From an uncultured Clostridia bacterium (GTDB lineage Bacteria; Bacillota; Clostridia; Oscillospirales; CAG-272): 57,743 bases of DNA. The position numbers and the translations under genes are program-made. The stretch is from contig CANQYV010000004.1 of the NCBI GenBank assembly GCA_947628165.1, forward strand, positions 1 through 57,743. The letters run 5' to 3'. Shown piece after piece: positions 8,748 through 57,496 of the stretch; within the stretch, counting starts at the first letter, position 1, and every line of letters begins with the position of its first letter. The notes beneath the pieces were generated by a model. That model did not search any database, had not been told where the DNA came from, and was given only the letters and a program-made list of their open reading frames with translations.

Positions 8748-8771
8748 ATTTATTTCGGTCAATAATTTTGA

Positions 8772-8800
8772 TTGACAAAGAGGTGCGCCGGGCGTATAAT
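8772..8800 (+). promoter_or_regulatory. Consensus sigmaA promoter
   Basis: TTGACA(8772-77)-17 nt-TATAAT(8795-8800), perfect consensus. Confidence 0.8.
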
Positions 8801-8836
8801 TATTGTTGAAAAAAGTTGTTTTTTGGGGAAACGGGA

Positions 8837-41747: not shown

Positions 41748-42028
41748 TTTGGTTCGCCTTTCAGGAAAGTTTCGTTTGCGTTCTCACGGTAAACAGTATA
41801 GTCTCAAAAGGCGAAAAAATCAACCCGTCAGCAAAAAAGAGCAAAGAAGGCGGGGGAAAAAGAAGATTGTCTCCGCTTTGCGCGTAAAGCACAAAGCGCG
41901 CAGTTATTTGAGGAACAAATTTATATAAAGTGTGGGTTGCAAAAAAAAATCAATTTAGTATAATAAGGGTGACTGGGGGGAGGCGATCGCTTGCCCCGAG
42001 CCAAATCCGAAAAGGAGGGCACTATTGT

Positions 42029-42316
42029 ATGCTTAAAAGAGAGGTTCAGATGCATGACGTCGATATCGCAGAATTTATCCACGCGCTCGACGGATGCGAA
42101 GGTGACGTTTATCTTGAGACGGTTGACGGCGACTGCATCAATCTGAGGTCGCGTCTCTCACAGCTGCTCGGTATCGCCGAGATAATCAACGGAGGTCTTG
42201 TGACCAACGCTAAGCTCCGCTGCGAGAATCCCGAGGATGAGTCGAAGCTGTTCCGCTTCTCCCTCTTCCGCGAGATCCCCACAAAAGACAGCGAAGGCGA
42301 GGAAAAGTCCGAATAA
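42029..42316 (+). CDS. Small HPr-fold-like protein lacking His15
   Basis: AGGAGG RBS; F....D.C.GDV.L....GDCINLRS resembles the HPr NxKS region; own promoter (41937-64) and terminator. Confidence 0.55.
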   Translation: MLKREVQMHDVDIAEFIHALDGCEGDVYLETVDGDCINLRSRLSQLLGIAEIINGGLVTNAKLRCENPEDESKLFRFSLFREIPTKDSEGEEKSE

Positions 42317-42335
42317 CTCCGATACCGAAATCGGG

Positions 42336-42366
42336 AAAGCACGACGACCGTCGTGCTTTTTTCTTT
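42336..42366 (+). terminator. Intrinsic terminator
   Basis: AAAGCACGAC-gacc-GTCGTGCTTT then T run. Confidence 0.75.
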
Positions 42367-42394
42367 CAAAAAAGAATATGCACAACATTTTGCG

Positions 42395-42430
42395 TTCGCG
42401 CTTGAATTCGTGCGCGAAATATGGTAAAAT
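42395..42430 (+). promoter_or_regulatory. sigmaA promoter of GH43 with inverted repeat around -35
   Basis: TTGAAT-17 nt-TAAAAT; TTCGCGC/GCGCGAA arms at 42395-401 and 42412-18. Confidence 0.5.
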
Positions 42431-42460
42431 AAACTGAAGCTCAATAATGCGGAGGAACGT

Positions 42461-44032
42461 ATGAAAAACAGCGAAATAAAGCGGAAAAACAACCCCATAA
42501 TCTGGGCGGATATTCCCGATGTCGACGTTATCCGCGTCGGCGACACCTACTATATGATAAGTACGACGATGCATCTGATGCCGGGAGGCGTCATCTTCCG
42601 CTCGTATGACCTTGTGAACTGGGAGGTCGCGACGTATATTTACGATGTGCTCGAAAATACGCCGGGCGCGCGCCTCGAGGACATGCGCGGCATATACGGC
42701 GCTGGCATGTGGGCGGCGACGCTGCGCTATCACAACGGACGGTTTTACGTCATCTTCGTCGCGAACGACACTCGCGCGGAGAATATGTCGTTCCTCTACA
42801 CGTCGGAAAAAATCGAGGGCCCGTGGGAAAAGAGAAAGATCAAGGGCTTTTATCACGACTGCTCGCTCTATTTCGAGGGGGACCGCCCGTTTATCGTCTC
42901 CGGCTGCGGGCAGGTGCGCCTCGTAGAAATGAGGCCCGACCTCTCGGAACCGCTCCCCGGCGGTATCGACAAGATAATCATTTCCGACCGCGAGTATGTC
43001 AGCCTCCCGTCCGAGGGCTCACATATGTATAAGATAAACGGAAAATATTATATCTTCATGATACACTGGCTTCGCTACGGCACAAAACGCCGCGTCGAGG
43101 TCTGCTATATGTCGGACAAGATCGACGGGCCGTATGTCGGCGGAAATATTCTCGACGACGACATGGGATATCACAACGCCGGCGTCGCGCAGGGCGGCAT
43201 TGTCGACACGCCCGACGGCGACTGGTACGCAATGCTGTTCCAGGACCACGGCGCTGTCGGAAGGATACCGGTGCTCGTACCCATGACATGGGACAGCGAG
43301 TCTTCGTTCCCCGTATTCGGAGAGGGCGGGCGCGTTCCGCGCACGGTCGAGGTCAGGTCAACGCGTCCCGACTATGAATATGAACCCATAATCACGTCGG
43401 ACGGCTTCGACTATGCGGAAGGCGAGCAGCTCCACAACGCATGGCAGTGGAACCATATTCCCGACGATTCGCTTTGGAGCACGACGGAGCGCCCCGGCTG
43501 GCTCCGTCTCAGAACGGGGAGCACGGCGCCGAACGTCACGCTTGCGAAGAATTCTCTCGGGCAGCGCACGGCGGGTCCCGTATGCGAAGGCTCTGTCACG
43601 CTCGATGTTTCGGGCCTCGGAGACGGCGACTTCGCGGGGCTCTGCGCGATGCAGAGCAATTACGGATTTATAGCCGTCACGCGCGAGGGAGACGATAAGT
43701 ATATAGTTATGCTGAAACGCAGCGAGCAGGAGCTCGACGCGCACGGCAGGCCGATTCCCGGCGATAAGCTCCCCGGCATCGAATACGGCAGGGTGAAGCT
43801 CGAGGGCAACGTCGTTAAGCTTAAGATAAGGTGCGATTTCCGCGAAAACGTCGATTTGGCGGAGTTCTTCTACGAGGACGGCGGCGAGTGGCACAGGCTC
43901 GGAGATGAGCTGCATATGCTCTACACTCTCGACCACTTCATGGGGTACCGCTTCGAGCTCTGCTGCTTCTCGACAAAAACGCCCGGCGGATACGCGGATT
44001 TTGACGACTACACGATAAATGTCATCGAGTGA
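42461..44032 (+). CDS. GH43 beta-xylosidase/arabinofuranosidase with C-terminal beta-sandwich
   Basis: NPII..D.PD, GMWA..LRYH.G.FY, HD, EGSH, AQGG, GRIP, WQWNH.P, ADFD; no signal peptide. Confidence 0.9.
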   Translation: MKNSEIKRKNNPIIWADIPDVDVIRVGDTYYMISTTMHLMPGGVIFRSYDLVNWEVATYIYDVLENTPGARLEDMRGIYGAGMWAATLRYHNGRFYVIFVANDTRAENMSFLYTSEKIEGPWEKRKIKGFYHDCSLYFEGDRPFIVSGCGQVRLVEMRPDLSEPLPGGIDKIIISDREYVSLPSEGSHMYKINGKYYIFMIHWLRYGTKRRVEVCYMSDKIDGPYVGGNILDDDMGYHNAGVAQGGIVDTPDGDWYAMLFQDHGAVGRIPVLVPMTWDSESSFPVFGEGGRVPRTVEVRSTRPDYEYEPIITSDGFDYAEGEQLHNAWQWNHIPDDSLWSTTERPGWLRLRTGSTAPNVTLAKNSLGQRTAGPVCEGSVTLDVSGLGDGDFAGLCAMQSNYGFIAVTREGDDKYIVMLKRSEQELDAHGRPIPGDKLPGIEYGRVKLEGNVVKLKIRCDFRENVDLAEFFYEDGGEWHRLGDELHMLYTLDHFMGYRFELCCFSTKTPGGYADFDDYTINVIE

Positions 44033-44056
44033 CGGCGAGTCCGAGAGGGTAGACAC

Positions 44057-45196
44057 ATGACAGATACGCGGCGCAAATGGCTGCGCGCCATGCTTAAGAT
44101 AGTGACGCCGGTGCTCGAGTCTGCCTCGCGCGGCGAGCTCAGATCGAGGATGCCGGTCTATGCGCGTCCCGGCGTGACGGACAGAGAAGAGTATACATAT
44201 CTTGAGGCTTTGGGGAGAGTCGTTTGCGGGATTTCGCCTTGGCTCGGAACCAAAGCCGAGGACGGGGAGGAAGAAGAACTCCGCCTCAGATATGCGGAGA
44301 TGACGAGGCAGGCGATACGATTTGCCGTTATGCCCGGCTCGCCGGATATGATGAATTTCTCGCGCGGCGGGCAGCCTATCGTGGATGCCGCGTTTCTGGC
44401 GGAGGGTATCCTCCGCGCGAAGGCGGAGCTTTGGGATGCGCTCGAGGGGGATGTGAAGCGAGAGCTTTTGGCTCGGATGAGAGAGACGCGGACGCGGAAG
44501 CCTTATGCGAGCAACTGGCTTTTGTTCGCCGCGATGACAGAGACTCTGCTTTACGAGGCGGGGGCGTCCGATTGGGACCCGATGCGCGTCGATTATGCGC
44601 TGAGGCAGCATATGCAGTGGTATCTCGGAGACGGCTTTTACGGCGACGGCCCCGAATTTCATCTTGATTATTACAACAGCTATGTCATAAACCCTATGCT
44701 CGTCGATATCATCCGCACCGTCGGAGATGTTTTCCCGGATTGGGCGGAAATGAAGGACGAGATAATAAGGCGGGCGTCAAGATTCGCGTCCGCAGAAGAA
44801 ACGATGATATGCCCGGACGGGACGTATCCCGTGCTCGGGCGCTCTTCCGCGTACCGCTTCGGCGCGTTCCATGCGCTCTGTCAGGCGGCGCTGCTCGGCT
44901 ATCTGCCGGAAAGCGTTGATCCGGCGGCGGTGCGGTGCGCGCTCACCGCGGTGATAGAAAAGGTCATGTCGTACTCCGGAATCTTTGACGGGGAGGGCTG
45001 GCTCACTATCGGCGTCTGCGGGGAGCAGCCGGAGATAGGAGAGGGCTATATTTCAACGGGGAGCCTGTATCTTTGTACGGCAGTGTTCCTTCCGCTCGGG
45101 CTGCCGGATTCGGCTCCGTTCTGGTCGTTGCCGGACGCGGCGTGGACGCAGCGCCGTATATGGGCGGGCGACGTGTCTGCCGTGACGAGACATTAG
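44057..45196 (+). CDS. DUF2264 family protein
   Basis: LEALGR, QPIVDAAFL, SNWLLF, WYLGDG.YGDG...HLDYYNS, GRS.AYRF, EGYISTGSLY. Confidence 0.78.
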   Translation: MTDTRRKWLRAMLKIVTPVLESASRGELRSRMPVYARPGVTDREEYTYLEALGRVVCGISPWLGTKAEDGEEEELRLRYAEMTRQAIRFAVMPGSPDMMNFSRGGQPIVDAAFLAEGILRAKAELWDALEGDVKRELLARMRETRTRKPYASNWLLFAAMTETLLYEAGASDWDPMRVDYALRQHMQWYLGDGFYGDGPEFHLDYYNSYVINPMLVDIIRTVGDVFPDWAEMKDEIIRRASRFASAEETMICPDGTYPVLGRSSAYRFGAFHALCQAALLGYLPESVDPAAVRCALTAVIEKVMSYSGIFDGEGWLTIGVCGEQPEIGEGYISTGSLYLCTAVFLPLGLPDSAPFWSLPDAAWTQRRIWAGDVSAVTRH

Positions 45197-45199
45197 AAA

Positions 45200-45241
45200 A
45201 ATACCCGCGGAGGCTTCCGTTCGGAAGCCTCCGCGGGTATT
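45200..45241. terminator. 19-bp perfect hairpin / bidirectional terminator
   Basis: AATACCCGCGGAGGCTTCC-gttc-GGAAGCCTCCGCGGGTATT. Confidence 0.8.
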
Positions 45242-45244
45242 CTT

Positions 45245-45790
45245 TCATTCGCCCGAGATACGTTTGTATTCGGTGATTATTTTTTCCGCCGTTTTCTCCG
45301 GCGTACTGTTCGTGCTGTCTATGACAAGGTCATAATTATCGGGGTCGGTGTAATCGACGCCGTATATCGACTTGAACCGTTCGCGTTCGAGCTCCTGCCG
45401 CCGTATGAGCGCCGCCTTTGCCTCATCGACCGTCCGGTACGACTCGACATCGCCGCGTTCCGCGGCGAATACGCGGCGCGCTGCCTCGTCTGCGTCGACG
45501 TCGATGAATACGCGGAACGCATTCTCGGCGAAATGCCACGCCATTCGCGAGTCAAAAATTATGTGGTCGCGCGTTCTTGAAAGCTCCGTTACGGCGTCGT
45601 CTATTACATGGTCGAACGCGGCGTCTGTCATCATTCGCTGATTGAGCTCAAGGGTCGTTATTCCCATCTCCGCCGCCGCGTGACGCTGTACGCTGCCCGT
45701 CGAGTATATATCGTAACCGAGCGTTTCCGATAATATTCCGGCAACGGTCGATTTGCCGCTCCCGAGTCTGCCCGTTATAGCAATGTGCAT
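45245..45790 (-). CDS. Cytidylate kinase-like protein (type 2/archaeal-like CMP kinase)
   Basis: GRLGSGKST P-loop, STG..QR, DSR, RFKSIYGVDY, YDLVIDS. Confidence 0.75.
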   Translation of the reverse strand: MHIAITGRLGSGKSTVAGILSETLGYDIYSTGSVQRHAAAEMGITTLELNQRMMTDAAFDHVIDDAVTELSRTRDHIIFDSRMAWHFAENAFRVFIDVDADEAARRVFAAERGDVESYRTVDEAKAALIRRQELERERFKSIYGVDYTDPDNYDLVIDSTNSTPEKTAEKIITEYKRISGE

Positions 45791-46637: not shown

Positions 46638-47193
46638 GTGAACGAGACAACAGCATATGTTAAGGACATGCCTTCCCTTGAGGAGGAGAGCGCAGAGACA
46701 AATGAAACGGTCAATGTTATACTTCCTTTCAAGAAAGATAAGGAATATTACGTCGAGACGCTGAAAAACGTCCCTAGAAAACCTGTTTATTCTTTCTTTA
46801 AGCGCTTTTTTGATATTGTTTTTTCCGTGTTTGCCCTTTTGATTTGCACCATTCCGATGGCAATTATAGCTGTTATAATAAAGCTGAGTTCTCCAGGCCC
46901 CGTCTTTTTCAGACAGGAGAGGCTCGGCTTGAACGGAAAAAAATTTAAAATAGTAAAATTCAGAACAATGTGCGTCGACGCGGAAGCAAAAGGCGCTCAG
47001 TGGTCGCAGGGAGACGATGACCCGCGAATATTTGATCGTGGATGCATTTTTGAGAAAAGTACGTCTTGATGAACTTCCTCAGTTTGGAGCTATCCTCTGC
47101 GGGAAAATGAGTCTTGTCAGCCTAATACCCGAATGCGAGTGTTTTTACAATGAATTTAAAACCATACATACACGTCTCGAGAAAAATAGGTAG
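46638..47193 (+). pseudogene. Frameshifted, truncated priming sugar transferase
   Basis: KRFFDIV..SPGPVFFRQER.G.NGK.F...KFRTM..DDPRI, then FLRKVRLDELPQ...KMSLV in another frame; GPRPE decayed to SLIPE; C-terminal part missing. Confidence 0.8.
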
Positions 47194-47494: not shown

Positions 47495-48307
47495 ATGGTG
47501 AACAAGTTGAGCGAAGAAATGAGCGAAACATTACTTTTGAAGCGAGAGGTAGACGTCAAAGACGCGCCCGGAATTGTGATGAGCCCGGCTGTAAAACAGC
47601 CCGAACCGCAGACGGAAGTCTATTCAGGCTCGGCGTCGAAAGTTAAAAGCAGACCGATATATGCATTTGTAAAGTGTCTTGCGGACTTTGTGCTGTCGCT
47701 CGCAGCGAGTGTTGTCCTTATAATCCCGATGGCGGTGATTGCATTAATTATCTACATTAAAGACCCCGGCAACCCGTTCTACATGCAAACCCGCGTCGGA
47801 AAGAGCGGAAAGCCTCTCAGAATCCTGAAATTCAGGACGATGCGAAATGGTGCGGACAAGCTGGAGAATATGCTCACGTCAGAGCAGCTAGAAGAATACA
47901 AGCGCGAGTACAAGCTCGACGACGACCCGAGGTTGATCGGCTACAGGAAGCCGGGCTACGGCAAGACTTGTTTTGGCGCAAGACTAAGGCAGCTTTCGAT
48001 TGACGAGCTCCCGCAAATTGTATGGAATGTTTGCTTGAAAGGGAATATGTCCTTGGTCGGACCGCGACCGATCCTCCGAGAAGAGTTGGAAAGATATTAC
48101 ACTCCCGAGCAGCAAAAAGCGTTGTTGTCGGTGAAACCGGGACTGACCGGCTACTGGCAGGCGTATGCGAGGAACAACGCGAAGTACGACACTGGTGAAC
48201 GGCAGAAAATGGAGCTTTATTACATAGGACGGCGGTCTTTCTTAATGGATATAAAAATTATTTTAGCTACCGTATCAGCTGTAGTAAAGAAAAATGGAGC
48301 CAAGTAA
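47495..48307 (+). CDS. Priming glycosyl-1-phosphate transferase (Bac_transf family)
   Basis: KFRTM, DDPR, SIDELPQ, MSLVGPRP, VKPGLTGYWQ; exact start uncertain. Confidence 0.88.
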   Translation: MVNKLSEEMSETLLLKREVDVKDAPGIVMSPAVKQPEPQTEVYSGSASKVKSRPIYAFVKCLADFVLSLAASVVLIIPMAVIALIIYIKDPGNPFYMQTRVGKSGKPLRILKFRTMRNGADKLENMLTSEQLEEYKREYKLDDDPRLIGYRKPGYGKTCFGARLRQLSIDELPQIVWNVCLKGNMSLVGPRPILREELERYYTPEQQKALLSVKPGLTGYWQAYARNNAKYDTGERQKMELYYIGRRSFLMDIKIILATVSAVVKKNGAK

Positions 48308-48309
48308 TT

Positions 48310-48865
48310 ATGGATAGGAATACTTTAATAAAAATCAGGTGTTATTTGATTTTAAATCCGATTAAAAGAACAAAGTATCTTATTAAAAAGGGCGTATTCA
48401 ATTCTGTTGGAAAAAACTTTTATTTTTGTCCGAGAAAAATTCCGCAGGATCCGATGCTGATCAGATTTGGCGATAATGTCAAAGTAGCAACAGATGTGTT
48501 TTTTGTCACACATGACATTATTCATGATATGGTAAATGATATTGAGCCGCCTTTTTCAGACAATAAACTGAGCAAAGAATTCGGATGTATCGAAGTTAAG
48601 AATAATGTTTTTATTGGGGCAGGTTCTATAATTTTGCCTAACGTTACAATTGGCCCTGATGTAATAGTTGCTGCTGGCAGCGTAGTGACAAAATCATTTT
48701 CGGGGGGGGGTAATAATTGGCGGCAACCCTGCACGGGTGATTGGCAGTGTTGAAGATTTGATAAAGAAACGTATAGCGCAAAATCTTGAAAATCCACATT
48801 ATAACGATAGGTTCTTTGAAGCAAGACGTCTTTGGGCAATGTGGGATAATAAGGAAATTGAATAG
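48310..48865 (+). pseudogene. Hexapeptide-repeat O-acyltransferase, out of frame at a G9 tract
   Basis: GDNVKVA, FVTHD, NNVFIGAGSIILPNVTIGPDVIVAAGSVVTK; removing one G at 48702-10 restores GVIIGGNPARVIG...stop 48865 (184 aa). Confidence 0.8.
48702..48710 (+). repeat. G9 homopolymer (candidate slipped-strand switch)
   Basis: cGGGGGGGGGt in otherwise AT-rich DNA, exactly at the frameshift. Confidence 0.85.
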
Positions 48866-48905
48866 TTTAGGCACATCTGAGCACTGCAGCGAGGGAGGAG
48901 AGATT

Positions 48906-50075
48906 ACGAACAAAGGCAAGCTTAGAAACAGAATTGCTTATATATTAAAACATAATAAGGCGTTGTTGACTATATATAAAACGACAATGAGTGCAGCAAT
49001 CAAAACGCTAGGGATATTTGTCAAGCGTGATGACTTTCTCGTTCTGTTTGTTTCATATAGCGGAAAAAAGTTTGATGACAGCCCACTGGTGTTGTTTGAA
49101 GCCATGAAAGCCGATCAACGATTCAAAGATTTTCATTTTGTATGGGCTTTTGAAGAACCTACAAAGTTTAAAGTTGAAAATGCAGATACAGTAAAAATAG
49201 ATTCTTTAAAATATTTTATAACAGCTTTAAAGGCAAAAATATGGATAACAAATGTAAATATAGAACGCGGTTTGAGTTTCAAAAAGGAAGGGACAATTCT
49301 TTTAAATTCTTGGCATGGGACAGGCCCAAAAAAGAACGGAAATGCCATTAAATCGAGAAATGACTACGATTTTTCAAACGTAGATATTTTTTGTTGCGAC
49401 GGCGAATACACAAAGAATCACTTTGTAAAGTGGTTTAATGCCCGAGAATCCTCTATGCTGTGGTGCGGAAGACCGCGCGAAGATGAACTTTTTGAATTTA
49501 CGGATGCAGATACGATTAGAATCAGAAAAAAGCTGAATATTCCCGATGAAAAGCAGGTTCTATTGTATATGCCTACATGGAGAGACTATGAGAATCAGGA
49601 TGCTGACTACTCTTTATGGGAAAAGAGGCTAGGCGATAAATACGTTCTTTTGTGCAGAACTCACCACTTTGATATGAAAGTGAAAAGCGTTGAAAATTCA
49701 AACGGATTTTTCATTGATGTTACAACATATCCCAATGTCAATGAACTGTATTGGGTGGCTGATATATTGATATCAGATTATTCCAGCGCTTTTTTTGACT
49801 TTGGCCTTTTAGGAAAACCGATGTTTTGTTTTGCAAACGACTACGATAAATTTGCCTCCGTTACAGGGCTGTTTATAGATTTAAGATCTGAGTTTCCAAA
49901 CGGTATAATGGAATCTGATGAGGATTTGATTTCTTCCATATGCAAAATGGACTATGACAGAGAGTGTGAGAAGATTAAACAATATGTGGCAAAATATGTA
50001 TCGCATCCCATGAACGCAACACAAGCATGTTTAGATAGAATTTATGAATTACTGTATAGAACCAATGACTTATGA
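48906..50075 (+). CDS. CDP-glycerol/ribitol polyol-phosphate transferase (TagF/TagB family)
   Basis: WHGT..KK, G.PR.D, YMPTWR, R.H, SDYSS..FDF; start uncertain (GGAGGAG RBS precedes ATT-ACG). Confidence 0.85.
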   Translation, partial: TNKGKLRNRIAYILKHNKALLTIYKTTMSAAIKTLGIFVKRDDFLVLFVSYSGKKFDDSPLVLFEAMKADQRFKDFHFVWAFEEPTKFKVENADTVKIDSLKYFITALKAKIWITNVNIERGLSFKKEGTILLNSWHGTGPKKNGNAIKSRNDYDFSNVDIFCCDGEYTKNHFVKWFNARESSMLWCGRPREDELFEFTDADTIRIRKKLNIPDEKQVLLYMPTWRDYENQDADYSLWEKRLGDKYVLLCRTHHFDMKVKSVENSNGFFIDVTTYPNVNELYWVADILISDYSSAFFDFGLLGKPMFCFANDYDKFASVTGLFIDLRSEFPNGIMESDEDLISSICKMDYDRECEKIKQYVAKYVSHPMNATQACLDRIYELLYRTNDL

Positions 50076-50327
50076 TGTGGGGGTAATTCTCTCGCTAATC
50101 AGTGTTGGCACATGTATTGATTTTGGTTTGACCAGGCAATAACACACAAATGTTTTTACAGAGAAATGGTGTGTGCCGAATTCAATCCGGAACTCTATCT
50201 TGACTCGCCGCGAGCATCTTTTAGATGGAAAATATGATGTGCGAAAATAATATGGTGGATGATAAACGATATATACGATCACCTCACAGACTCATACAGG
50301 ATAACAATAAAAAGACGGTGAACTCAT

Positions 50328-50786
50328 ATGAAAATTGCAATAGGCAACGACAGACAAGGGCTGCTTTTGAAAAGAGATTTGCTGATTTGGCTGAGTGAAA
50401 AGGGGCACAACTTAACGGATGTCGGAACAAATGAAGATGGTCCATGCGATTACCCGATATTTGCAGAGAGCGTTGCAAGCCTTGTATCAAACGGCACATG
50501 CGAAAGAGGGATTGTTATCTGTGCCACGGGCGTCGGCATATCCATTGCAGCAAATAAAGTTGCCGGAATTCGCTGCGGTTTGGCGTATGATGATGAAGTG
50601 ACAAAACTTATGAGGCAGCACAATGACGTAAACATGATTGCTTTCGGTCAAAGGTTTATGTCTTTGGAAGATGTCAAGAGAAGACTGGAAATTTTTCTGA
50701 ATACCGATTTTTTGGGAGGATATCATCAGGAAAGAATAACTCTTATCTCTCAAATAGAAGAGAAGCAGAGAGGCATGAAGCAGTGA
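50328..50786 (+). CDS. rpiB: RpiB/LacAB sugar-phosphate isomerase
   Basis: IAIGND, DYP, ICATGVG.SIAANKV.GIR, RQHND.N, F.GG.H..R. Confidence 0.85.
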   Translation: MKIAIGNDRQGLLLKRDLLIWLSEKGHNLTDVGTNEDGPCDYPIFAESVASLVSNGTCERGIVICATGVGISIAANKVAGIRCGLAYDDEVTKLMRQHNDVNMIAFGQRFMSLEDVKRRLEIFLNTDFLGGYHQERITLISQIEEKQRGMKQ

Positions 50787-51496
50787 AGGTAAGAGTTGTA
50801 ATACTTGCCGGAGGAACCGGCAGTAGAATGAAAACAGATTTGCCTAAGCAATTTATTGAAGTAGACGGCGTTCCGGTGATTGTAAATACAATAAACAACT
50901 TTCAGAATAACAATCGCATTGATAGCATTACGGTAGTATGTCTGAAAGATTGGAGTGGCTATCTACAGGAGCTTATTGCAAAATATCGGTTGGACAAGGT
51001 TATCAGCATTGTAGCGGGCGGAGATACGGGACACGATTCCGCAAAAAACGGAGTTATGTCTTTAGAAAAAACGATGGATGAAGATGATATTGTTGTAATT
51101 CATGACGCAGCGCGCCCGCTTATTTCTCAGGTGATTATCAATGATATGTTAGACACGGCAATTAAATACGGAAACGCCTGCACTGCAATACCTATTCACG
51201 ACACTATTATTGTCACTGACGATCAGCAGTCGGGCAATACACAAATTGAGCGTAATAAAATAATGAGAGTGCAAACTCCGCAGGCATACAGATTCGGTCT
51301 CATCAAAGCACTTTATCAGCGAGCCGATGAAGAAAACAAACACGATTTTATATATGCCAATACCATGGCTATTACATACGGGGTTAGAATATATTTTTCC
51401 ACCGGATCTGATTGCAATATAAAGCTGACCACAAAGGAAGATTTGGCTTATTACAAGGCGATGAAACAATTCAGCGAGGAGGAACGCAGCAAATGA
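50783..51496 (+). CDS. IspD/TarI family cytidylyltransferase
   Basis: LAGGTGSRM...PKQF, IHDAARP, QTPQ, NIKLTT.ED. Confidence 0.88.
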   Translation: MKVRVVILAGGTGSRMKTDLPKQFIEVDGVPVIVNTINNFQNNNRIDSITVVCLKDWSGYLQELIAKYRLDKVISIVAGGDTGHDSAKNGVMSLEKTMDEDDIVVIHDAARPLISQVIINDMLDTAIKYGNACTAIPIHDTIIVTDDQQSGNTQIERNKIMRVQTPQAYRFGLIKALYQRADEENKHDFIYANTMAITYGVRIYFSTGSDCNIKLTTKEDLAYYKAMKQFSEEERSK

Positions 51497-52524
51497 ACCT
51501 TTCGCCTATCGAAGCTAACGAGTTTAACAGATATACGGAACGGTATTCTTTTTTGCCATTTATAAAGAATAAAACTTTTCTTATTACCGGCAGTAACGGC
51601 ATGATCGGCTCCGGGATAATTAAGTGGCTTCTTTATGAAAATGCGGCTCACGGCGCTGACTGCCGTATTTTTGCGTCTACAAGACATCCTCAGAACAGGC
51701 CTGATTATCTTGAATCGGACGATAATGTTGTCATGTGTCAGTTTGGAATGGAAAATCAGGATGTCGAAACGGAAGAGATTGATTATATTATTCATACTGC
51801 TGCACCGACAGGGAGAAAGTATTTTATTACAAAGCCGGTGGAAACTCTTCGGGTCATAGTAGACGAAACCGAAAAAATGCTGGATTTGGCCAAAGAAAAA
51901 AACGCGCAAATGGTTTACTTATCGTCCGTAGAAGCCTACGGCATTCCGAACACAGATGCTCCAATTAAGGAGGACTATGTTGGCGCCGTGGACAGTTTGG
52001 ATATAAGAAACGGATATCCGATGGGAAAGAAAGCTGCCGAATTTTTATGTTATGCGATGAGCAAAGAGTATGGCGTAAATGTTTGTATTGTCAGGCTTTC
52101 ATCTATACAAGGATTGCTTCAGCCTTATGATGAGCAAAGGATATTCAACGAAATTCTCAGATGTGTAATTGAAGGTAAAGATTTGATAATGAAATCCGAC
52201 GGGCTCAGCAAAAAGTCTATTGTATATTCTCTTGACGCTATCAGCGGTATTTTTACTGCATTGTTCAGAGGTGAGTCCGGCGAGGCGTACAATATCACAG
52301 ACCCGGCTACATATATGACGGTGCGCGATTTGGCATCGTATGTTTTTGAAAAGTTTAATCCTGATGTACATATTGTTTTCGATATAGAAGATACGTCGAA
52401 AACCGGGTATCTGCCGCATTTGGAATTTACTCAGGACATAATGAAGTTGCAAAAGCTGGGCTGGGGGCCGATTTCAAATTTGGAACATATATACAAAACA
52501 GATTTATCGAGATTCGGAGAATAA
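51493..52524 (+). CDS. NAD-dependent epimerase/reductase (extended SDR)
   Basis: ITGSNGMIG, IIHTAAP, SSVEAYG, YPMGK (YxxxK); ATG 51493 overlaps the tarI-like stop. Confidence 0.85.
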   Translation: MNLSPIEANEFNRYTERYSFLPFIKNKTFLITGSNGMIGSGIIKWLLYENAAHGADCRIFASTRHPQNRPDYLESDDNVVMCQFGMENQDVETEEIDYIIHTAAPTGRKYFITKPVETLRVIVDETEKMLDLAKEKNAQMVYLSSVEAYGIPNTDAPIKEDYVGAVDSLDIRNGYPMGKKAAEFLCYAMSKEYGVNVCIVRLSSIQGLLQPYDEQRIFNEILRCVIEGKDLIMKSDGLSKKSIVYSLDAISGIFTALFRGESGEAYNITDPATYMTVRDLASYVFEKFNPDVHIVFDIEDTSKTGYLPHLEFTQDIMKLQKLGWGPISNLEHIYKTDLSRFGE

Positions 52525-52527
52525 GAA

Positions 52528-54315
52528 ATGATATTGGATAAAGTCACGTCTCCCGCAGATTTAAAGAAGCTTCCTGCCGATAAACTTCCGGAGCTGGCTC
52601 GGGAAATCAGAGATGTTCTTATAAATAAAGCAAGTAACTTTGGCGGGCATTTGGGATCAAACCTTGGAGTTGTTGAGCTGACGATTGCACTTCACTATGT
52701 GTTTGATTCGCCAAAGGATAAAATTGTCTTTGATGTTTCTCATCAGTGCTATGTCCATAAAATACTGACCGGCAGAAAAGCAGCCTTTCTTGACGAAAAG
52801 CTTTATCGTAGCGTATCGGGCTATACAAATCCAAAGGAAAGCGAGCACGATATGTTCAATGTCGGACATACGTCCACTTCCATAAGCCTGGCGTGCGGTC
52901 TTGCAAAAGGCAGAGATATCTGCAAAAGAACCGAAAATATAATTGCAGTTATCGGCGACGCAGCTTTAGACGGAGGAGAGGCGTTCGAGGCTTTAAACTC
53001 TGCCGTTGAGGTGGGCGGAGGCCTTATTGTCGTTGTTAATGATAACGACATGTCAATACCGGAAAACCACGGAGCGCTTTGCAAACATCTTGCCGAACTT
53101 CGTAAGAATGAGGGCAAATGCGAGAACAACTTCTTTAAAGCGCTCGGATTTGATTATTATTTTGTAAAAGACGGACACAATATCGCAGAGTTGATTGAGG
53201 CTTTTACAAAGGTCAAGGATATTACACACCCAGTGATTGTTCATTGCGTTACGAAAAAAGGAAAAGGATATAGTTTTGCAGAAGATAATTCCGAAAAATG
53301 GCATTGGGCGCATCCCTTCAATATTGAAACAGGTGAGTTTTATAAAGGAACGGCGGTTCCCAAGGAAAACTACGGTTCCATTGTCGGGCAATATTTGATG
53401 CAAAAAATCAAAGATGATCCAAAGATCGTGGCTATGACGGCTTCTGTGCCAGCGTACATAGGGTTTAATTCCGAAAGAAGAAAGGAAGCCGGTAGTCAGT
53501 ATGTTGATGTCGGAATAGCAGAGGCTAACGGCGTTACCATGGCGGCAGCGATTGCAAAAAGCGGCGGAAAGCCGGTGTTTGTAACGGGAAGCTCGTTTTA
53601 TCAGCGAGCCTATGACCAAATAGAGCAGGAAATGTGTATAAACAGATGTGCTGCCACGATGCTTGTTGCATTTTCGGGTATTAACGGACATGACAGTGAC
53701 GCTCATGCAGGTTTATACGACATGGCTTTGTTAGGTAATATCCCCGGTTTGATTTATCTCGCTCCGTCCAATAAGCAAGAATATTTGGCGATGCTGGAGT
53801 GGAGCATTGAGCAAAATGAAAGCCCGGTAGCAATCCGAATCCCTTGGAACGGTGTTCATTATACAAATGAGCCTGTTCCGCCGGAGTATTCCAAAACGAA
53901 ATACATGGTCAGAAAGAGCGGGTCGCAAGTTGCAATTCTCGGTCTGGGAAGCTTTTATCAGCTGGCAGAGCAGGTTGCGGAGCTGATTAAAAAAGAAATG
54001 AAGATTGAACCAACGCTTATTGACCCGATGTTTATTACAGGTGTGGACGAGCCATTACTGGAAGATTTAAAATCCAATCACAAGCTGATAGTCACTTTGG
54101 AGGACGGCATCGTTTTAGGAGGCTTTGGCGCAAGAATTTCGCAATTTTACGGCGTCGATGATATGAAAGTGATAAATTGCGGCTTCCACACAGAGGTGCC
54201 GACACAGTTTACGGTTGAAGAAATGATGGAGAAAAACGGTCTTATGCCGGAGCAAATACTGCAAAGAGTTAAAGACATAGTCGGCGGCAATGAATCAACT
54301 GAGGAGAAGAAATGA
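52528..54315 (+). CDS. dxs: DXP synthase-like ThDP enzyme (short paralogue)
   Basis: GGHLGSNLGVVELT, DVSHQ.Y.HKILTGR, GHTSTS, GD..L.GG.AFEALN..NDN, DVGIAE, QRAYDQ, EDG...GGFG. Confidence 0.8.
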   Translation: MILDKVTSPADLKKLPADKLPELAREIRDVLINKASNFGGHLGSNLGVVELTIALHYVFDSPKDKIVFDVSHQCYVHKILTGRKAAFLDEKLYRSVSGYTNPKESEHDMFNVGHTSTSISLACGLAKGRDICKRTENIIAVIGDAALDGGEAFEALNSAVEVGGGLIVVVNDNDMSIPENHGALCKHLAELRKNEGKCENNFFKALGFDYYFVKDGHNIAELIEAFTKVKDITHPVIVHCVTKKGKGYSFAEDNSEKWHWAHPFNIETGEFYKGTAVPKENYGSIVGQYLMQKIKDDPKIVAMTASVPAYIGFNSERRKEAGSQYVDVGIAEANGVTMAAAIAKSGGKPVFVTGSSFYQRAYDQIEQEMCINRCAATMLVAFSGINGHDSDAHAGLYDMALLGNIPGLIYLAPSNKQEYLAMLEWSIEQNESPVAIRIPWNGVHYTNEPVPPEYSKTKYMVRKSGSQVAILGLGSFYQLAEQVAELIKKEMKIEPTLIDPMFITGVDEPLLEDLKSNHKLIVTLEDGIVLGGFGARISQFYGVDDMKVINCGFHTEVPTQFTVEEMMEKNGLMPEQILQRVKDIVGGNESTEEKK

Positions 54316-55289
54316 ATCCTTTAATCAGTTTAGTAATACCTGTCTACAACGTCGAAAAATATCTTGACAAGTGCATGAGTTCCGTCCTTGCGCAAACCTA
54401 TGATAACTTTGAGGTCATACTCGTCGACGACGGCTCGACCGACAACAGCGGCAAGATGTGCGATGAGTATGCGGAAAAGTATGGCAGAGTAACTGTTTAC
54501 CATAAGCCGAACGGTGGTCTTTCCGACGCGAGAAATTTCGGTGTGGAGCATTGCAATGCCGACTTGGTTTCATTTATTGATTCAGACGACTATGTAACCG
54601 AGGATTATCTTGAATACCTCTGGTATTTGATGAAGAAGTACAATGTGGATATTGCTTGCGCAACGGCAAAGAGAATTATCGAAACGGCGAAAATAAATAG
54701 GGACGATAACGACAGCGAGATACTTTTAGACTGCTCGGAGGCGATCAAAAGAATATGTTATACATCATGTAGTGCGTGTACGCGTCTTTACAAAAGACAA
54801 TTTCTTCTCACTCATCCGTATCCCAAAGGAAGATTATACGAGGATCTTGCGACCACATGTAAAATTTACGGAAGCAGTTCAAAAAGCGTATTCGGAGGGA
54901 AGACAATATACTATTGGGTTCAGCGGCAAGGAGGAATAACACATAGCGAGATTGATAAAAAACAGTATGATTTGTTTTGGTCTGCTGATGAACAGTTGAA
55001 TTATATTTCCGAAAACTTTCCGGCGTCGGAGAGTGCGTCACATGCAAGATGCGTTATGGCCGCATGTCATTTTGTTACACGACTCTTTAGCAGCAAAAGC
55101 AAGAACAGAAAGCAGCATTTTAAATACGCAAGAAGTTATGTTAAAAAGCATTTGAAATATATTGTACGAGACAGAAATACTCCAAAAAATATTATTATTT
55201 CCGGATTGACTATTTATATGGGCTATACAGCTTCAAAAATTCTATGGCCGGTCAGACAGAAAATTAGAAAGGCTATCAGGGGCATTTAA
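54312..55289 (+). CDS. GT2 glycosyltransferase
   Basis: IPVYNVE, DDGSTD, NGGLSDARN, FIDSDD, YED. Confidence 0.92.
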   Translation: MNPLISLVIPVYNVEKYLDKCMSSVLAQTYDNFEVILVDDGSTDNSGKMCDEYAEKYGRVTVYHKPNGGLSDARNFGVEHCNADLVSFIDSDDYVTEDYLEYLWYLMKKYNVDIACATAKRIIETAKINRDDNDSEILLDCSEAIKRICYTSCSACTRLYKRQFLLTHPYPKGRLYEDLATTCKIYGSSSKSVFGGKTIYYWVQRQGGITHSEIDKKQYDLFWSADEQLNYISENFPASESASHARCVMAACHFVTRLFSSKSKNRKQHFKYARSYVKKHLKYIVRDRNTPKNIIISGLTIYMGYTASKILWPVRQKIRKAIRGI

Positions 55290-55293
55290 CAAT

Positions 55294-56364
55294 ATGTGGA
55301 TATATTTCACTGCCACGTCGCTGTCGATTATGATAACATGGCTTGCTGTAAAAGCGCATAATGACAACAGGATAGCTAATTACAACAAAAATGTTATAAG
55401 CTCTGTTTTTGCGGTAATGTCATGTCTACCGCTTTTAATTGTTATGGCATTTAGAAAAGGGGTCGGCACAGACTATTGGAGCTATCAAATATGGTTTAGC
55501 TCAAGTAATCGGGGAGACTTGGAAATAGGATTTAAAACGTTGAACATTATTTTAAATTTTGTTTTTGGCGACCCTCAAAGTATTTATATTGTTTGTGCAG
55601 TTATAATATGCGGATTCTATTTTTATATGATTTACAAAGAGTCGGTATCTCCGATGTACAGTGTACTGCTTTTTGTAATATCGAAAGATTATTTTATAGC
55701 TATGAACGGCATGAGACAATATGTGGCTGGGACTATAGCTTTGATGGCTTTTCCGTATTTTAAAAAAAGAGATTGGAAGAAGTCACTACTTATTATTTTT
55801 ATTGCATCTTTATTTCATAAATCGGCTTTTATCTTTGTACTTTTGTATATTATTATTGACATTGACATAAATCCCGCTTGGGCAGTGGGTATATTTGCGG
55901 GATTAGTATTGTTTTCAAATACAATAAAGAGCGTTGTCTTCCCGATATTGATTAAAATTGGATTTTATTCTAAATATTTCTCAGAAACATCTCATTACAA
56001 CAACTCTGAAGGAGAGTTTAACTGGCATACCATACTGATATTTATGTGCTTTTTCATTCTGATTGCGTATGAATATAAAAAGGCCAAAGCAAATCAGAAT
56101 CTGAAATTAGTTTACAGTGCGGTTTTGATAAGTTTGTTTATTGCTTCAACAGGTTCTATTCTGCCTCTTAATGCGCATCGTTTGACGTGGTATATGAATT
56201 CAGTTCTTGTACTGTATATACCGGAGGTTACACGGTCTTTGAGCAACAAAAGGCTGAGAATGATCGTAGACACCATGATTATATTTGCATTTACGATGAC
56301 TACTTTAATTGACATCTTAAATGGCAATCAAGGAGTTCTTCCGTATAAAGCATTTTGGGATTAG
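55294..56364 (+). CDS. EpsG-family membrane protein (probable Wzy polymerase)
   Basis: About 10 TM segments; R..VGTDY..Y, EIGF, NGMRQ, FHKSA, PY at the C-terminus. Confidence 0.8.
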   Translation: MWIYFTATSLSIMITWLAVKAHNDNRIANYNKNVISSVFAVMSCLPLLIVMAFRKGVGTDYWSYQIWFSSSNRGDLEIGFKTLNIILNFVFGDPQSIYIVCAVIICGFYFYMIYKESVSPMYSVLLFVISKDYFIAMNGMRQYVAGTIALMAFPYFKKRDWKKSLLIIFIASLFHKSAFIFVLLYIIIDIDINPAWAVGIFAGLVLFSNTIKSVVFPILIKIGFYSKYFSETSHYNNSEGEFNWHTILIFMCFFILIAYEYKKAKANQNLKLVYSAVLISLFIASTGSILPLNAHRLTWYMNSVLVLYIPEVTRSLSNKRLRMIVDTMIIFAFTMTTLIDILNGNQGVLPYKAFWD

Positions 56365-56419
56365 CTTTTAATTTATAAAACAAACACGCGTAAAAACAAA
56401 GGAAGTGTTGGTGAAAAAA

Positions 56420-57496
56420 ATGAAGGTTGGAATCTTGTCAATGCAACGTGTCATAAATTATGGGTCATTTTGGCAAGCATACTTATTAAAAAAAATATTA
56501 GAGGACAAAGGAAATAAAATTGAGTTTATTGATATACTGCCGGGCAAGGAATTATGCAAGTATAAGGCAAGAAAGTTTGATATAAAAAAAATAAAATATT
56601 ACCTTTCTTTTCGTTTCCAAAAACGGCAGGCCTTTAATTCTTTTTTTTCAGATATGCTTGGGGTGGCGTCATCACCTAATTTCTCATCAGAATACGATCG
56701 AATAATAATCGGCAGCGATGAGGTTTTTAATTTTGCTCAGCCCTCACCGTGGGGGTTTTCTCCGCAACTTCATGGCGCAATAGATAACGAAAATGTTAGT
56801 TCATATGCAGCGTCATTTGGTTCAGCAACATTAGAAGATGTAGAGAGATACGGATTACGAGACGAACTTGTTGCTGCAATGTCGAATCTCAGACACATTT
56901 CTGTTAGGGACAAAAATTCCTATGATATAACGAAAGAACTTCTCCCAGATGCTAAAGTGTATCTTCATTTTGATCCGGTCTTAGTTGGAGATCTTCCTGT
57001 ACCTGAAAGACAAGACGTTGATAAAAAATATATCGTCATTTATGCATATAATTTCAGATTTAACGATAAGGATCTCATAACGGAAATTAGGAAATTTGCA
57101 AAACAAAATGGATTTAAGATATATTCAGTAGGCTTTTATCAGAGTTGGGTTGATAAAAATATTGTCGTCGATCCATATCAAATTCTTCAGTACTTCGTGA
57201 ATGCGGAATACATAATCACAGACACGTTCCATGGTACAATTTTTTCTGTTAGATGTCATAAAAAATTTGCAACAGTCATACGGGACGGTGCAAGCGGAAA
57301 TAGGCAAAAGCTGTCTTCGCTTTTGAACGACCTTAAACTCGGCGAAAGGGAGCTTGTGAGAGCGAAGGATTTTGAAAAGACCCTTACGACGGAAATTGAT
57401 TATAATTCGGTTGACGAAATACTGAATAGAGAAAAAAATAAAGCTCAAAGATACCTTGATATGTGCCTTTATGGAGAACCTTACGAAGAGGAGTAA
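56420..57496 (+). CDS. Polysaccharide pyruvyl transferase family protein
   Basis: NYGS.WQ, GSDEV.N, SYAASFG, ISVRD, DP, TDTFHGT. Confidence 0.85.
   Translation: MKVGILSMQRVINYGSFWQAYLLKKILEDKGNKIEFIDILPGKELCKYKARKFDIKKIKYYLSFRFQKRQAFNSFFSDMLGVASSPNFSSEYDRIIIGSDEVFNFAQPSPWGFSPQLHGAIDNENVSSYAASFGSATLEDVERYGLRDELVAAMSNLRHISVRDKNSYDITKELLPDAKVYLHFDPVLVGDLPVPERQDVDKKYIVIYAYNFRFNDKDLITEIRKFAKQNGFKIYSVGFYQSWVDKNIVVDPYQILQYFVNAEYIITDTFHGTIFSVRCHKKFATVIRDGASGNRQKLSSLLNDLKLGERELVRAKDFEKTLTTEIDYNSVDEILNREKNKAQRYLDMCLYGEPYEEE

Follow-up and report, generated by a model that had tools for sequence, protein, structure and literature searches.

Which surface-glycan building block might be made by a gene set that brings together an RpiB-like isomerase, an IspD/TarI-like cytidylyltransferase, an extended SDR, and a DXS-like ThDP enzyme? 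The four genes lie in a window of 57,743 nucleotides, the whole stretch of DNA analyzed here (contig CANQYV010000004.1, hereafter C4, of an uncultured Clostridia bacterium, assembly GCA_947628165.1). On the basis of sequence and structure comparisons, we give about an even chance to the proposal that they constitute a mobile four-enzyme module for a CDP-activated 1-deoxy-alditol destined for a surface glycan.

A four-enzyme gene set within a low-GC glycan island

From ~45 kb to the end of the window, GC content drops from ~0.55-0.6 to 0.38-0.43. The low-GC glycan island begins with a truncated N-terminal fragment of a polyprenyl-phosphate sugar-phosphate transferase (46638..47069; PF02397 Bac_transf, 86.8 bits), whose match is restricted to profile positions 1-84 of 179. 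Downstream, and like all genes of the island described here on the + strand, are an intact initiating phosphoglycosyl transferase (Bac_transf; 47495..48307; PF02397, 168 bits over the full profile; TIGR03025, 202 bits, below the cut-off), a hexapeptide-repeat O-acetyltransferase-like gene (48310..48753; PF00132, 41.5 bits) with 97% identity to the copy in locus L012, and a TagF/TarF-type CDP-alcohol phosphotransferase (48786..50075; PF04464 Glyphos_transf, 243 bits, covering profile positions 10-352 of 367). The genes for the RpiB-like protein (50328..50786), the IspD/TarI-like protein (50783..51496), the SDR (51493..52524), and the DXS-like protein (52528..54315) follow. They are succeeded by genes for a GT2 glycosyltransferase (54312..55289; PF00535, 136.7 bits), an EpsG-family (Wzy-like) polymerase (55294..56364; PF14897, 169 bits), and a polysaccharide pyruvyl transferase (56405..57496; PF04230, 83.6 bits). 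This arrangement confirms the first-pass annotation, which had placed the four genes between a TagF-type gene and GT2, Wzy, and pyruvyl transferase genes, and all four proved to be intact. The region that it delimited starts at position 48906, inside the TagF-like reading frame, where there is no in-frame start codon; for the TagF-like gene, possible starts are TTG at 48786, ATT at 48903 following a GGAGG, and ATG at 48987.

The genes are tightly packed, with the GTG start of the IspD-like gene overlapping the RpiB-like stop and the GT2 start overlapping the DXS-like stop. The SDR most likely starts at the ATG at 51493, which follows a GAGGAGG site and lies 4 nucleotides before the IspD-like stop; the TTG at 51412, which would give the longest reading frame, is disfavored by comparison. 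Because the contig ends at 57743, the locus is possibly cut. Profile matches revealed no standard-donor genes (tagD, tarIJ) in the locus.

The locus enzymes are surplus to housekeeping copies

The window was said to be devoid of dxr, ispE, and ispF, and this holds, with the genome's own copies residing on contigs C14, C30, and C1. Separate housekeeping dxs, ispD, and rpiB genes were likewise found on other contigs: ispD adjoins ispF on C1, rpiB lies on C46, and a canonical dxs scoring 590 bits on C39 dispels the concern that the locus might harbor the only dxs of the genome. The locus DXS-like, IspD-like, and RpiB-like proteins, which share 32%, 32%, and 34% identity with these counterparts, are therefore surplus paralogs. 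The DXS-like protein is not an ortholog of the housekeeping enzyme, being neither the sole copy in the genome nor a member of the same clade, and a branch with SH-aLRT support of 100 separates the two. A canonical DXS (605-793 bits) was also found beside the short paralog in all seven other module-bearing genomes checked.

The gene set recurs across loci

Recurrence was assessed in 52 loci encoding a DXS-like protein of at least 50% identity. The cassette does recur, with an IspD-like partner, an SDR partner, or both in 37 of the 52, and these 37 module loci display three gene orders. The same partners beside the DXS-like gene in this many related loci, in three arrangements, argue for a partnership beyond chance. 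A TagF-like or LicD match is present in 30 of the 37, mostly directly upstream of the IspD-like gene; LicD phosphotransferases (PF04991) occupy the TagF-like position in loci L015 and L018. The RpiB-like gene, an ancestral but dispensable member of the module, was found in 17 of the 37 and is missing from type-B loci, the simplest of which consist of TagF-like, IspD-like, SDR, and DXS-like genes only.

Among 150 genomes sampled from the same family, none had a close homolog of the SDR (E <= 1e-50). Taken together with the low-GC island, this fits horizontal acquisition of the gene set as a unit. Literature searches returned no description of an RpiB-like/IspD-like/SDR/DXS-like gene set.

The cytidylyltransferase and reductase suggest CDP activation before reduction

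The IspD-like protein (PF01128, 157 bits) scored below both IspD equivalog cut-offs (TIGR00453, 171.9 against 181.3 bits; NF001186, 180.6 against 253 bits) and missed that of the TarI subfamily by a single bit (NF001183, 165 against 166 bits). Its best matches in the PDB are the ribitol-5-phosphate cytidylyltransferases (TarI) 4JIS and 6XHP.

For the SDR (PF01370, 103.5 bits), the best PDB match was HS5.17 of Campylobacter jejuni (8V4G/8V4H, E = 4e-41), with UXS as the next family (7e-23). HS5.17 is described as a CDP-6-D-fructose 2-reductase in a report that assigns CDP and diphosphate contacts to R164, R233, D212, Y295/L296, and E140 and has Q196 bridging the glucitol hydroxyls at C3' and C4' (PMC10918830). 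All 24 aligned module SDRs retain the equivalents of E140, R164, Y167, K171, R208, and Y295-L296, with Y295 replaced by F in some, and the YxxxK catalytic pair is conserved as YPMGK. Across the same 24 sequences, R233 is exchanged for K, D212 for E, and Q196 for S, A, or V. We predict from these comparisons that the SDR is a CDP-ketose reductase. The relationship to HS5.17 and the conserved CDP, diphosphate, and NADP contacts argue for cytidylylation as the step before reduction, as in the conversion of CDP-6-fructose to CDP-6-glucitol. The order proposed in the first-pass annotation, CDP activation and then reduction, thus gains support from the reductase and from the TagF-like or LicD genes of most module loci.

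The C. jejuni HS:5 CDP-6-D-glucitol pathway resembles the window in having adjacent PF01128 (HS5.18) and PF01370 (HS5.17) genes in a surface-glycan locus, and it follows the same logic, in that a ketose phosphate is cytidylylated and C2 of the CDP-ketose is then reduced. That pathway, however, starts from fructose-6-phosphate, a central metabolite, and involves neither a ThDP enzyme nor an RpiB-like isomerase; the study mentions roughly 400 pairs (PMC10918830). The TagF-like enzyme presumably uses the CDP-activated product of the module. It shares PF04464 with the TagF/TarF CDP-glycerol glycerophosphotransferases, but falls below the equivalog cut-offs for TarF (NF041712, 168.7 against 550 bits), TarL, and TarB.

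The same enzymes could serve an ordinary CDP-pentitol route. CDP-D-arabinitol is made by AbpA/AbpB in Streptococcus pneumoniae, and CDP-ribitol by TarI/TarJ or Bcs1, with TarJ belonging to a different reductase family. In these systems, as in the window, an IspD-family cytidylyltransferase and a reductase feed a polyol-phosphate transferase; unlike the window, they draw a pentulose-5-phosphate from central metabolism and have no DXS-family enzyme. Under such a scheme, RpiB would give ribulose-5-phosphate, the cytidylyltransferase and SDR would act like AbpA/AbpB or Bcs1, and the DXS-like enzyme would be an auxiliary supplier, for instance of a pentulose phosphate in a transketolase-like reaction or of DXP for cofactors, contributing no carbon to the transferred group. 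The TarI-like kinship of the cytidylyltransferase and the ancestral place of RpiB in the module favor this route, and RpiB, a cytidylyltransferase, and a reductase already make up a complete route to CDP-ribitol. Nevertheless, we judge it unlikely. The DXS-like protein is the most constant member and defines all 37 module loci, whereas RpiB occurs in fewer than half; it forms a dedicated clade with its own acceptor-site signature, which would be unexpected for a generic supplier; and canonical DXS is already present in all eight module-bearing genomes checked, this one included, which also has a split transketolase.

The DXS-like and RpiB-like enzymes are altered near their substrate sites

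The DXS-like protein exceeded the cut-offs of both the general DXS family (TIGR00204, 490.4 against 465.95 bits) and the NF008968/PRK12315 subfamily (822 against 510 bits) and, having passed these thresholds, could make ordinary DXP for another purpose. Within a short "DXPS-like" subfamily, the module DXS-likes group together in a single clade (SH-aLRT 100). An AF2 model of the window protein (pLDDT 90.2) matched best to PDB 9KPQ (TM 0.95, 54% identity, 707 bits), the closest solved structure, which belongs to the same short subfamily, is titled 'A ThDP-dependent enzyme belonging to the DXPS-like subfamily', and was released 2025-08-20. Its motifs (GDGSLSGG, IAEEH, SQDL, GMNDVTH) match the short DXS-likes outside the module rather than the module clade. 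A primary paper for 9KPQ, which may assign the subfamily another function, was not found in the literature. Canonical DXS structures (E. coli 2O1S, D. radiodurans 2O1X, P. aeruginosa 8A29) share the fold (TM ~0.8-0.9, 31-35% identity), but the window protein is ~30 residues shorter, and its gene lies in a glycan operon and not in a housekeeping setting.

The module DXS-likes keep the GGH histidine, the cofactor-activating glutamate of IAE, the GD...NDN metal/diphosphate motif, and the TH histidine. The canonical GDG reads GDA in the window protein; 20 of the 21 module sequences have this A, and the remaining one has S. The clade carries the signature A145, D148, P178, S306, H388, W440, and P558; canonical enzymes show E/N/Q and R/K at the positions of H388 and W440, which lie by the acceptor loop. 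In E. coli DXS, we take R420, Y392, and D427 to be residues that bind GAP. In the alignment, R420 is replaced by F or H and Y392 by G or N, while the D427 position varies; across the short subfamily as a whole, neither R420 nor Y392 is retained. These changes, together with H388 and W440, imply that the acceptor, and even the donor, may differ from the one assumed. Both arginines equivalent to E. coli DXPS R398 and R478 are kept, and R478 is reported to be the essential phosphate-binding residue (PMC11387542). Their retention argues for a phosphorylated acceptor.

The RpiB-like protein (PF02502, 158 bits; TIGR01120, 140.6 bits against a cut-off of 138.65) has C. thermocellum RpiB as its best PDB match (3HE8, E = 9e-36), and its CATG (catalytic Cys/Thr) and HND (His-Asn) motifs align with that structure. 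The histidine of DHGG and the arginine of GGRH, from work on the E. coli and C. thermocellum enzymes, are presumably phosphate-site residues. Both motifs are intact in 3HE8 and in the housekeeping RpiB, whereas the window protein reads DRQG and GG-YH, and the site is altered in all 17 module RpiBs (DRQG, DRNG, or DKNG; GG-YH or GL-HH).

Alternatively, the DXS-like enzyme could come in at a later step, with a CDP-linked sugar as its substrate or something other than pyruvate as its donor. Its product would then be a CDP-sugar alcohol that is branched or extended in its chain, not a simple 1-deoxy-alditol, and the RpiB-like enzyme would likewise act on a CDP-linked or noncanonical substrate. The changed RpiB phosphate site and the substitutions at H388 and W440 lean this way, and the neighbors of sister and related DXS-likes (loci L023, L036, and L120) include nucleotide-hexose enzymes and a ThDP enzyme resembling acetolactate synthase/YerE. 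Some relatives of DXPS take a different donor, such as AniP, which uses aromatic keto acids (PMC11387542). Set against this, the two retained arginines align with phosphate-binding residues of DXPS, and the four genes of the simplest type-B loci suffice for a linear scheme. We know of no DXS-family enzyme with a nucleotide-linked acceptor, and we regard a late-acting enzyme as quite unlikely.

A candidate route to a CDP-1-deoxy-alditol

In its farthest-reaching form, the reading is that a DXS paralog clade was recruited from isoprenoid and vitamin metabolism to provide a new CDP-activated monomer, a methyl-terminated 1-deoxy-alditol phosphate of 5-7 carbons, depending on the acceptor, which TagF or LicD would install in capsules or exopolysaccharides of gut Clostridia; in this form, we hold it tentatively, at slightly less than even chances. 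In one lineage, represented by many gut-metagenome contigs, the recipient may be a different surface structure, encoded beside a FliD-like gene. In the pathway that we prefer, the DXS-like enzyme would decarboxylate pyruvate and join the resulting C2 unit to the aldehyde group of an aldose phosphate, giving a 1-deoxy-2-ketose omega-phosphate. With GAP this would be DXP; with E4P or R5P it would be the phosphate of a 1-deoxy-hexulose or 1-deoxy-heptulose. The IspD/TarI-like enzyme would attach CMP to the phosphate to yield a CDP-1-deoxyketose, and the HS5.17-like SDR, with NAD(P)H, would reduce the C2 keto group to give the CDP-1-deoxy-alditol. The TagF-like enzyme, or LicD in some relatives, would then link the deoxy-alditol phosphate through a phosphodiester to a repeat unit assembled by the phosphoglycosyl, GT2, acetyl-, and pyruvyl-transferases and polymerized by the EpsG/Wzy-like protein. 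The RpiB-like enzyme may convert a ketose phosphate into the aldose-phosphate acceptor, or it may isomerize the deoxyketose intermediate. RpiB cannot isomerize a 1-deoxy-2-ketose across C1-C2. If the pathway is correct, the divergent RpiB-like enzyme would be an isomerase of new specificity, which determines either the acceptor or the stereochemistry.

The first-pass annotation had already suggested that a DXS-made 1-deoxyketose phosphate is CDP-activated, reduced, and inserted as a deoxy-alditol phosphate. Our analysis supports this in part: the outline agrees, and the paralogs, the recurrence, and the CDP-ketose-type SDR speak for it, while the deoxy-alditol itself, the aldose accepted by the DXS-like enzyme, the sequence of reactions, and the part played by RpiB are less secure. 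No polysaccharide that contains a deoxy-alditol phosphate is known to us, and a text search for deoxy-alditol phosphate names returned only unrelated chemistry and metabolomics papers; hence, we have no chemical precedent for the product.

That the DXS-like and IspD-like proteins are instead extra copies of MEP-pathway enzymes, raising the isoprenoid supply for the undecaprenyl phosphate carrier consumed by glycan assembly, is highly improbable: DXS and IspD do belong to the MEP pathway, and the DXS-like protein scores above the dxs equivalog cut-off, but the IspD-like protein fails both of its own and is nearer to TarI, dxr, ispE, and ispF do not accompany them, and they are constantly paired with an SDR resembling a CDP-ketose reductase and with a CDP-alcohol phosphotransferase.

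The module lies in a low-GC glycan locus

From about 45 kb to the end of the window, GC content drops from ~0.55-0.60 to 0.38-0.43, and this low-GC stretch is a glycan locus with all genes on one strand. A phosphoglycosyl transferase gene (Bac_transf; 47495-48307) is followed by genes for a hexapeptide acetyltransferase (48310-48753) and a TagF-type phosphotransferase (PF04464, 243 bits; 48786-50075), and then by the four overlapping or abutting genes of the module, encoding an RpiB-family isomerase (50328-50786), an IspD/TarI-family cytidylyltransferase (50783-51496), an extended SDR (51493-52524), and a DXS-like ThDP enzyme (52528-54315). Genes for a GT2 (54312-55289), an EpsG/Wzy-like protein (55294-56364), and a pyruvyl transferase (56405-57496) complete the visible locus, which may be cut at the contig end at 57743 and so be incomplete. 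The first-pass annotation had described an isomerase, a cytidylyltransferase, an SDR, and a DXS-like gene next to a TagF-type gene, and this arrangement was borne out. The SDR most likely starts at the ATG at 51493, which has a GAGGAGG site ahead of it; the TagF-like gene has an uncertain start, and 48906, where the first-pass interval begins, is not an in-frame start codon.

At the edge of the low-GC island, a truncated Bac_transf fragment, corresponding to the N-terminal part (46638-47069), lies ~430 bp 5' of the intact copy and may be a scar from replacement of the locus. Just outside the island, at normal GC, positions 40596-45790 encode a GFO/IDH/MocA oxidoreductase, a GH43 beta-xylosidase, a DUF2264 protein, and a cytidylate-kinase-like protein on the opposite strand; these look like genes of ordinary carbohydrate use and apparently form no part of the module.

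The module is surplus to the housekeeping gene set and has signs of acquisition

The genome (2.2 Mb, 98% complete) has separate housekeeping dxs, ispD, and rpiB genes, as expected under the DXS-based CDP-deoxyalditol pathway of the first-pass annotation. Canonical DXS (TIGR00204, 590 bits) is encoded on contig C39, ispD adjoins ispF on C1, and RpiB is encoded on C46, with dxr on C14 and ispE on C30. The locus proteins share only 32% (DXS), 32% (IspD), and 34% (RpiB) identity with these copies and are classed, on this inventory, as surplus paralogs. A canonical DXS (605-793 bits) likewise accompanies the short paralog in 9 of 10 other genomes checked, including all seven that bear the module; the one exception is a 1.8-Mb MAG. 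A TIGR00204 match with internal stops on contig C2 was considered as a third DXS-like gene and rejected, as it is an ordinary split transketolase (97852-99618, minus strand; two neighboring ORFs, 285 and 315 aa long). Comparable split DXS-family matches also occur in other Clostridia genomes searched.

Of 150 genomes sampled from the same family, among them one from the same genus, none yielded a close SDR homolog (E ≤ 1e-50). Together with the drop in GC, this fits horizontal acquisition of the locus.

The cassette recurs in three gene orders

Species-representative genomes and metagenome contigs were scanned, and the best 80 loci from each were retained. Among these best loci, 52 encode a DXS-like protein at least 50% identical to that of the window, and in 37 of them an IspD-like (at least 35% identity) and/or SDR (at least 40%) homolog lies beside it; the counts include near-duplicates and are of loci, not independent events. 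The order RpiB-IspD-SDR-DXS-like is found in the window, L012 (90% identity), and L092 (82%); the order IspD-RpiB-DXS-like-SDR in, for example, L013, L015, L016, L018, L093-L098, L123, and L133; and the order IspD-SDR-DXS-like, without RpiB, in L017, L100, and ~18 near-identical contigs (L103-L122, L145), several of which are labelled human gut metagenome. RpiB is present in 17/37 module loci. Ten of the 15 partnerless loci have the DXS-like gene at the upstream contig edge, while five (L020, L021, L022, L023, and L120) have full flanks yet no module.

A TagF-like or LicD gene, detected with custom HMMs built from six and two members, occurs in 30/37 module loci, mostly immediately 5' of IspD. 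Five of the other seven have little upstream sequence, and neither HMM matched in L092 or L101, each with at least 5 kb upstream. One locus, L019 (6089-10821), contains TagF-like, RpiB-like, DXS-like, and SDR genes; tblastn found no IspD-like gene within 6 kb, a 243-aa upstream ORF being a GT2, and the cytidylyltransferase may lie elsewhere in that genome. In L145 (8001-9730), the DXS-like match falls into two tblastn pieces (8001-8666 and 8678-9730), which suggests a frameshift or assembly error.

Partner enzymes resemble a CDP-ketose-to-CDP-alditol system

The best solved relative of the SDR is HS5.17 of Campylobacter jejuni (8V4G/8V4H; E 4e-41), the next family following at 7e-23. HS5.17 converts CDP-6-D-fructose into CDP-6-D-glucitol by reduction, once fructose-6-P has been cytidylylated by HS5.18 (PMC10918830). 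When the residue list of that paper was mapped through alignment with 8V4G/8V4H, the SDR was found to keep E140, R164, Y167, K171, R208, and Y295-L296, with R233 replaced by K, D212 by E, and Q196, which is described there as bridging two hydroxyls of glucitol, by S (PMC10918830). The pattern held in 24 aligned module SDRs, some having F for Y295, with S, A, or V at the Q196 position. This conserved CDP-contact pattern supports a CDP-linked open-chain ketose as the probable substrate, so that cytidylylation would precede reduction. Reading substrate specificity from the sugar-contact residues was also considered and set aside: in HS5.17, R208 both touches the C1'-OH and binds NADP (PMC10918830), and its conservation is therefore uninformative as to deoxy or hydroxy substrates.

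The cytidylyltransferase falls short of the two IspD equivalog cut-offs and is no IspD by NCBI thresholds; it lies one bit under the cut-off for the TarI subfamily, and among solved structures TarI enzymes are closest to it. The RpiB-like protein retains the catalytic Cys/Thr and His-Asn motifs. All 17 module RpiB-likes, however, have Arg or Lys in place of the DHGG His and Tyr, His, or Lys in place of the GGRH Arg; both original residues are present in the RpiB encoded elsewhere in the genome and in that of C. thermocellum (3HE8). We take these two residues to be substrate-phosphate ligands, and their replacement makes a non-canonical substrate plausible.

The DXS-like proteins of the module form a distinct clade

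The DXS-like protein scores above the NCBI dxs cut-offs, is not a DXS ortholog, and preserves the DXS acceptor site only in part. In quick IQ-TREE phylogenies (LG+G4, no bootstraps), it belongs to a short subfamily (~580-595 aa) separated by a branch with SH-aLRT 100 from canonical DXS, that of its own genome included. Module-linked proteins form one clade (SH-aLRT 100; 21 module sequences plus the module-less L021), with L023, a Bacteroidales protein, as sister. RpiB-less sequences group in a single clade (SH-aLRT 99) within the RpiB-containing types, and the window's type is the first to branch off; this suggests that RpiB is ancestral to the module and was lost once.

Residues aligned with E. 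coli R420 and Y392 are gone throughout the short subfamily and the D427 position is variable, all three presumably having roles in GAP binding. The DXS-like protein retains its cofactor and catalytic motifs, together with the two arginines that align with R398 and R478 of E. coli DXPS; R478 is described as essential for binding phosphate (PMC11387542). The module clade carries a signature of A145 (GDG to GDA), D148, P178, S306, H388, W440, and P558, present in 20-21 of 21 module sequences, in at most 1 of 19 other short proteins, and in none of 47 canonical ones; H388 and W440 flank the acceptor loop and the R478 strand. An AlphaFold2 model (pLDDT 90.2) best matched PDB 9KPQ, a DXPS-like subfamily ThDP enzyme released on 2025-08-20 (TM 0.95, 54% identity). 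In alignment, the motifs of 9KPQ match the non-module short proteins, not the module clade.

A proposed route to a CDP-1-deoxy-alditol

From homology and gene context, we propose with moderate confidence that the module makes a CDP-1-deoxy-alditol. The DXS-like enzyme would join pyruvate-derived hydroxyethyl-ThDP to a phosphorylated aldose, giving a 1-deoxy-2-ketose phosphate; the IspD-like enzyme would form the CDP-deoxyketose; the SDR would reduce C2 to yield the CDP-1-deoxy-alditol; and the TagF-like enzyme (LicD in some relatives) would place the deoxy-alditol phosphate on the repeat unit. GAP as acceptor, giving DXP, is the simplest choice and would be enough for RpiB-less loci. E4P or R5P is also conceivable, given the loss of the R420 and Y392 equivalents, the presence of H388 and W440 as residues peculiar to the clade, and an RpiB-like partner that looks ancestral; the products would then be 1-deoxy-hexulose or -heptulose phosphates. 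Because RpiB chemistry is impossible across C1-C2 of a 1-deoxyketose, the RpiB-like protein would either supply the acceptor aldose or catalyze a C2-C3 ketol shift of the intermediate.

A less likely alternative is that the module makes ordinary CDP-ribitol or CDP-arabinitol and that the DXS-like enzyme has only an accessory part. Somewhat less probable again is that the DXS-like enzyme acts on a CDP-linked or otherwise different substrate or uses another donor. Extra MEP copies for supply of lipid carrier are highly improbable.

Under the CDP-1-deoxy-alditol proposal, the module would work as HS5.18/HS5.17 do, and as AbpA/AbpB do, as a two-enzyme CDP-ketose-to-CDP-alditol system with a TagF or LicD transferase; it differs from both in having a dedicated ThDP carboligase and a divergent isomerase. 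To our knowledge, CDP-alditol pathways (ribitol, arabinitol, glucitol/mannitol, glycerol) all start from central-metabolite ketose or polyol phosphates. The full-text literature searched, in which subscription journals are mostly uncovered, yielded no description of a DXS/IspD/SDR/RpiB glycan module or a CDP-1-deoxy sugar; an earlier description of part of the gene set is possible. If correct, the proposal would mean a new type of building block for bacterial surface glycans, one whose sugar skeleton is made by the module's own ThDP carboligase. It would also give a DXS-family enzyme its first physiological role beyond isoprenoid, thiamine, and pyridoxal synthesis, and would account for some of the as yet unexplained short DXPS-like proteins that coexist with canonical DXS in most genomes checked. 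Since many contigs from gut metagenomes carry the module, the host might see its product as an antigen, or phages might use it as a receptor determinant. Automatic annotation will name the module's genes dxs, ispD, and rpiB and thereby inflate counts of MEP and pentose-phosphate genes.

Surroundings of RpiB-less loci and of short DXS-like genes outside the module

In L112 (439-12955) and the contigs near-identical to it, two FkbM-type methyltransferase genes and a TagF-GT1 fusion precede the RpiB-less module; on its other side come a DUF3880/GT1-like gene and an ORF that carries the C-terminal domain of FliD (FliD_C). A flagellin-glycosylation setting was considered and is not established, the genes beyond the FliD_C ORF being nusG and ribosomal protein genes; in the L017 genome, flagellin genes lie on contigs other than that of the module. 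A link between the RpiB-less module and flagellar glycosylation is possible.

The idea that all short DXS-like proteins are glycan enzymes was ruled out by the unrelated neighbors of non-module members. Neighbors sampled in L020, L024, L026, L029, and L031 encode MgtE, Tex, a peptidase, a racemase, a cation exchanger, GNAT, or, as also in L027, proteins with no Pfam match; L021, inside the module clade, adjoins genes for a nitroreductase and an MFS protein. In G010, the one complete genome examined and the source of L026, a canonical DXS (773 bits) accompanies the short paralog. Labelled Alistipes and Anaerotignum, respectively, L031 and L032 are only ~0.14 changes per column apart on the tree and have six downstream gene clusters in common, which suggests recent transfer or a binning error.

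In L023 (1370-9758), L036 (19-9417), and L120 (6488-9212), from Bacteroidales and Helicobacteraceae MAG contigs and one metagenome contig, the DXS-like gene lies directly 3' of another extended SDR gene, its product 26% identical to that of the window. The pair in L023 and L036 sits inside a nucleotide-hexose cluster with an NTP_transferase, a 4,6-dehydratase-like SDR, an acetolactate-synthase/YerE-like ThDP enzyme, an HMGL-like protein, a DegT aminotransferase (split in L036), a dTDP-sugar isomerase fold protein, and glycosyltransferases. This cluster is a second, different glycan context for the short DXS-like subfamily.
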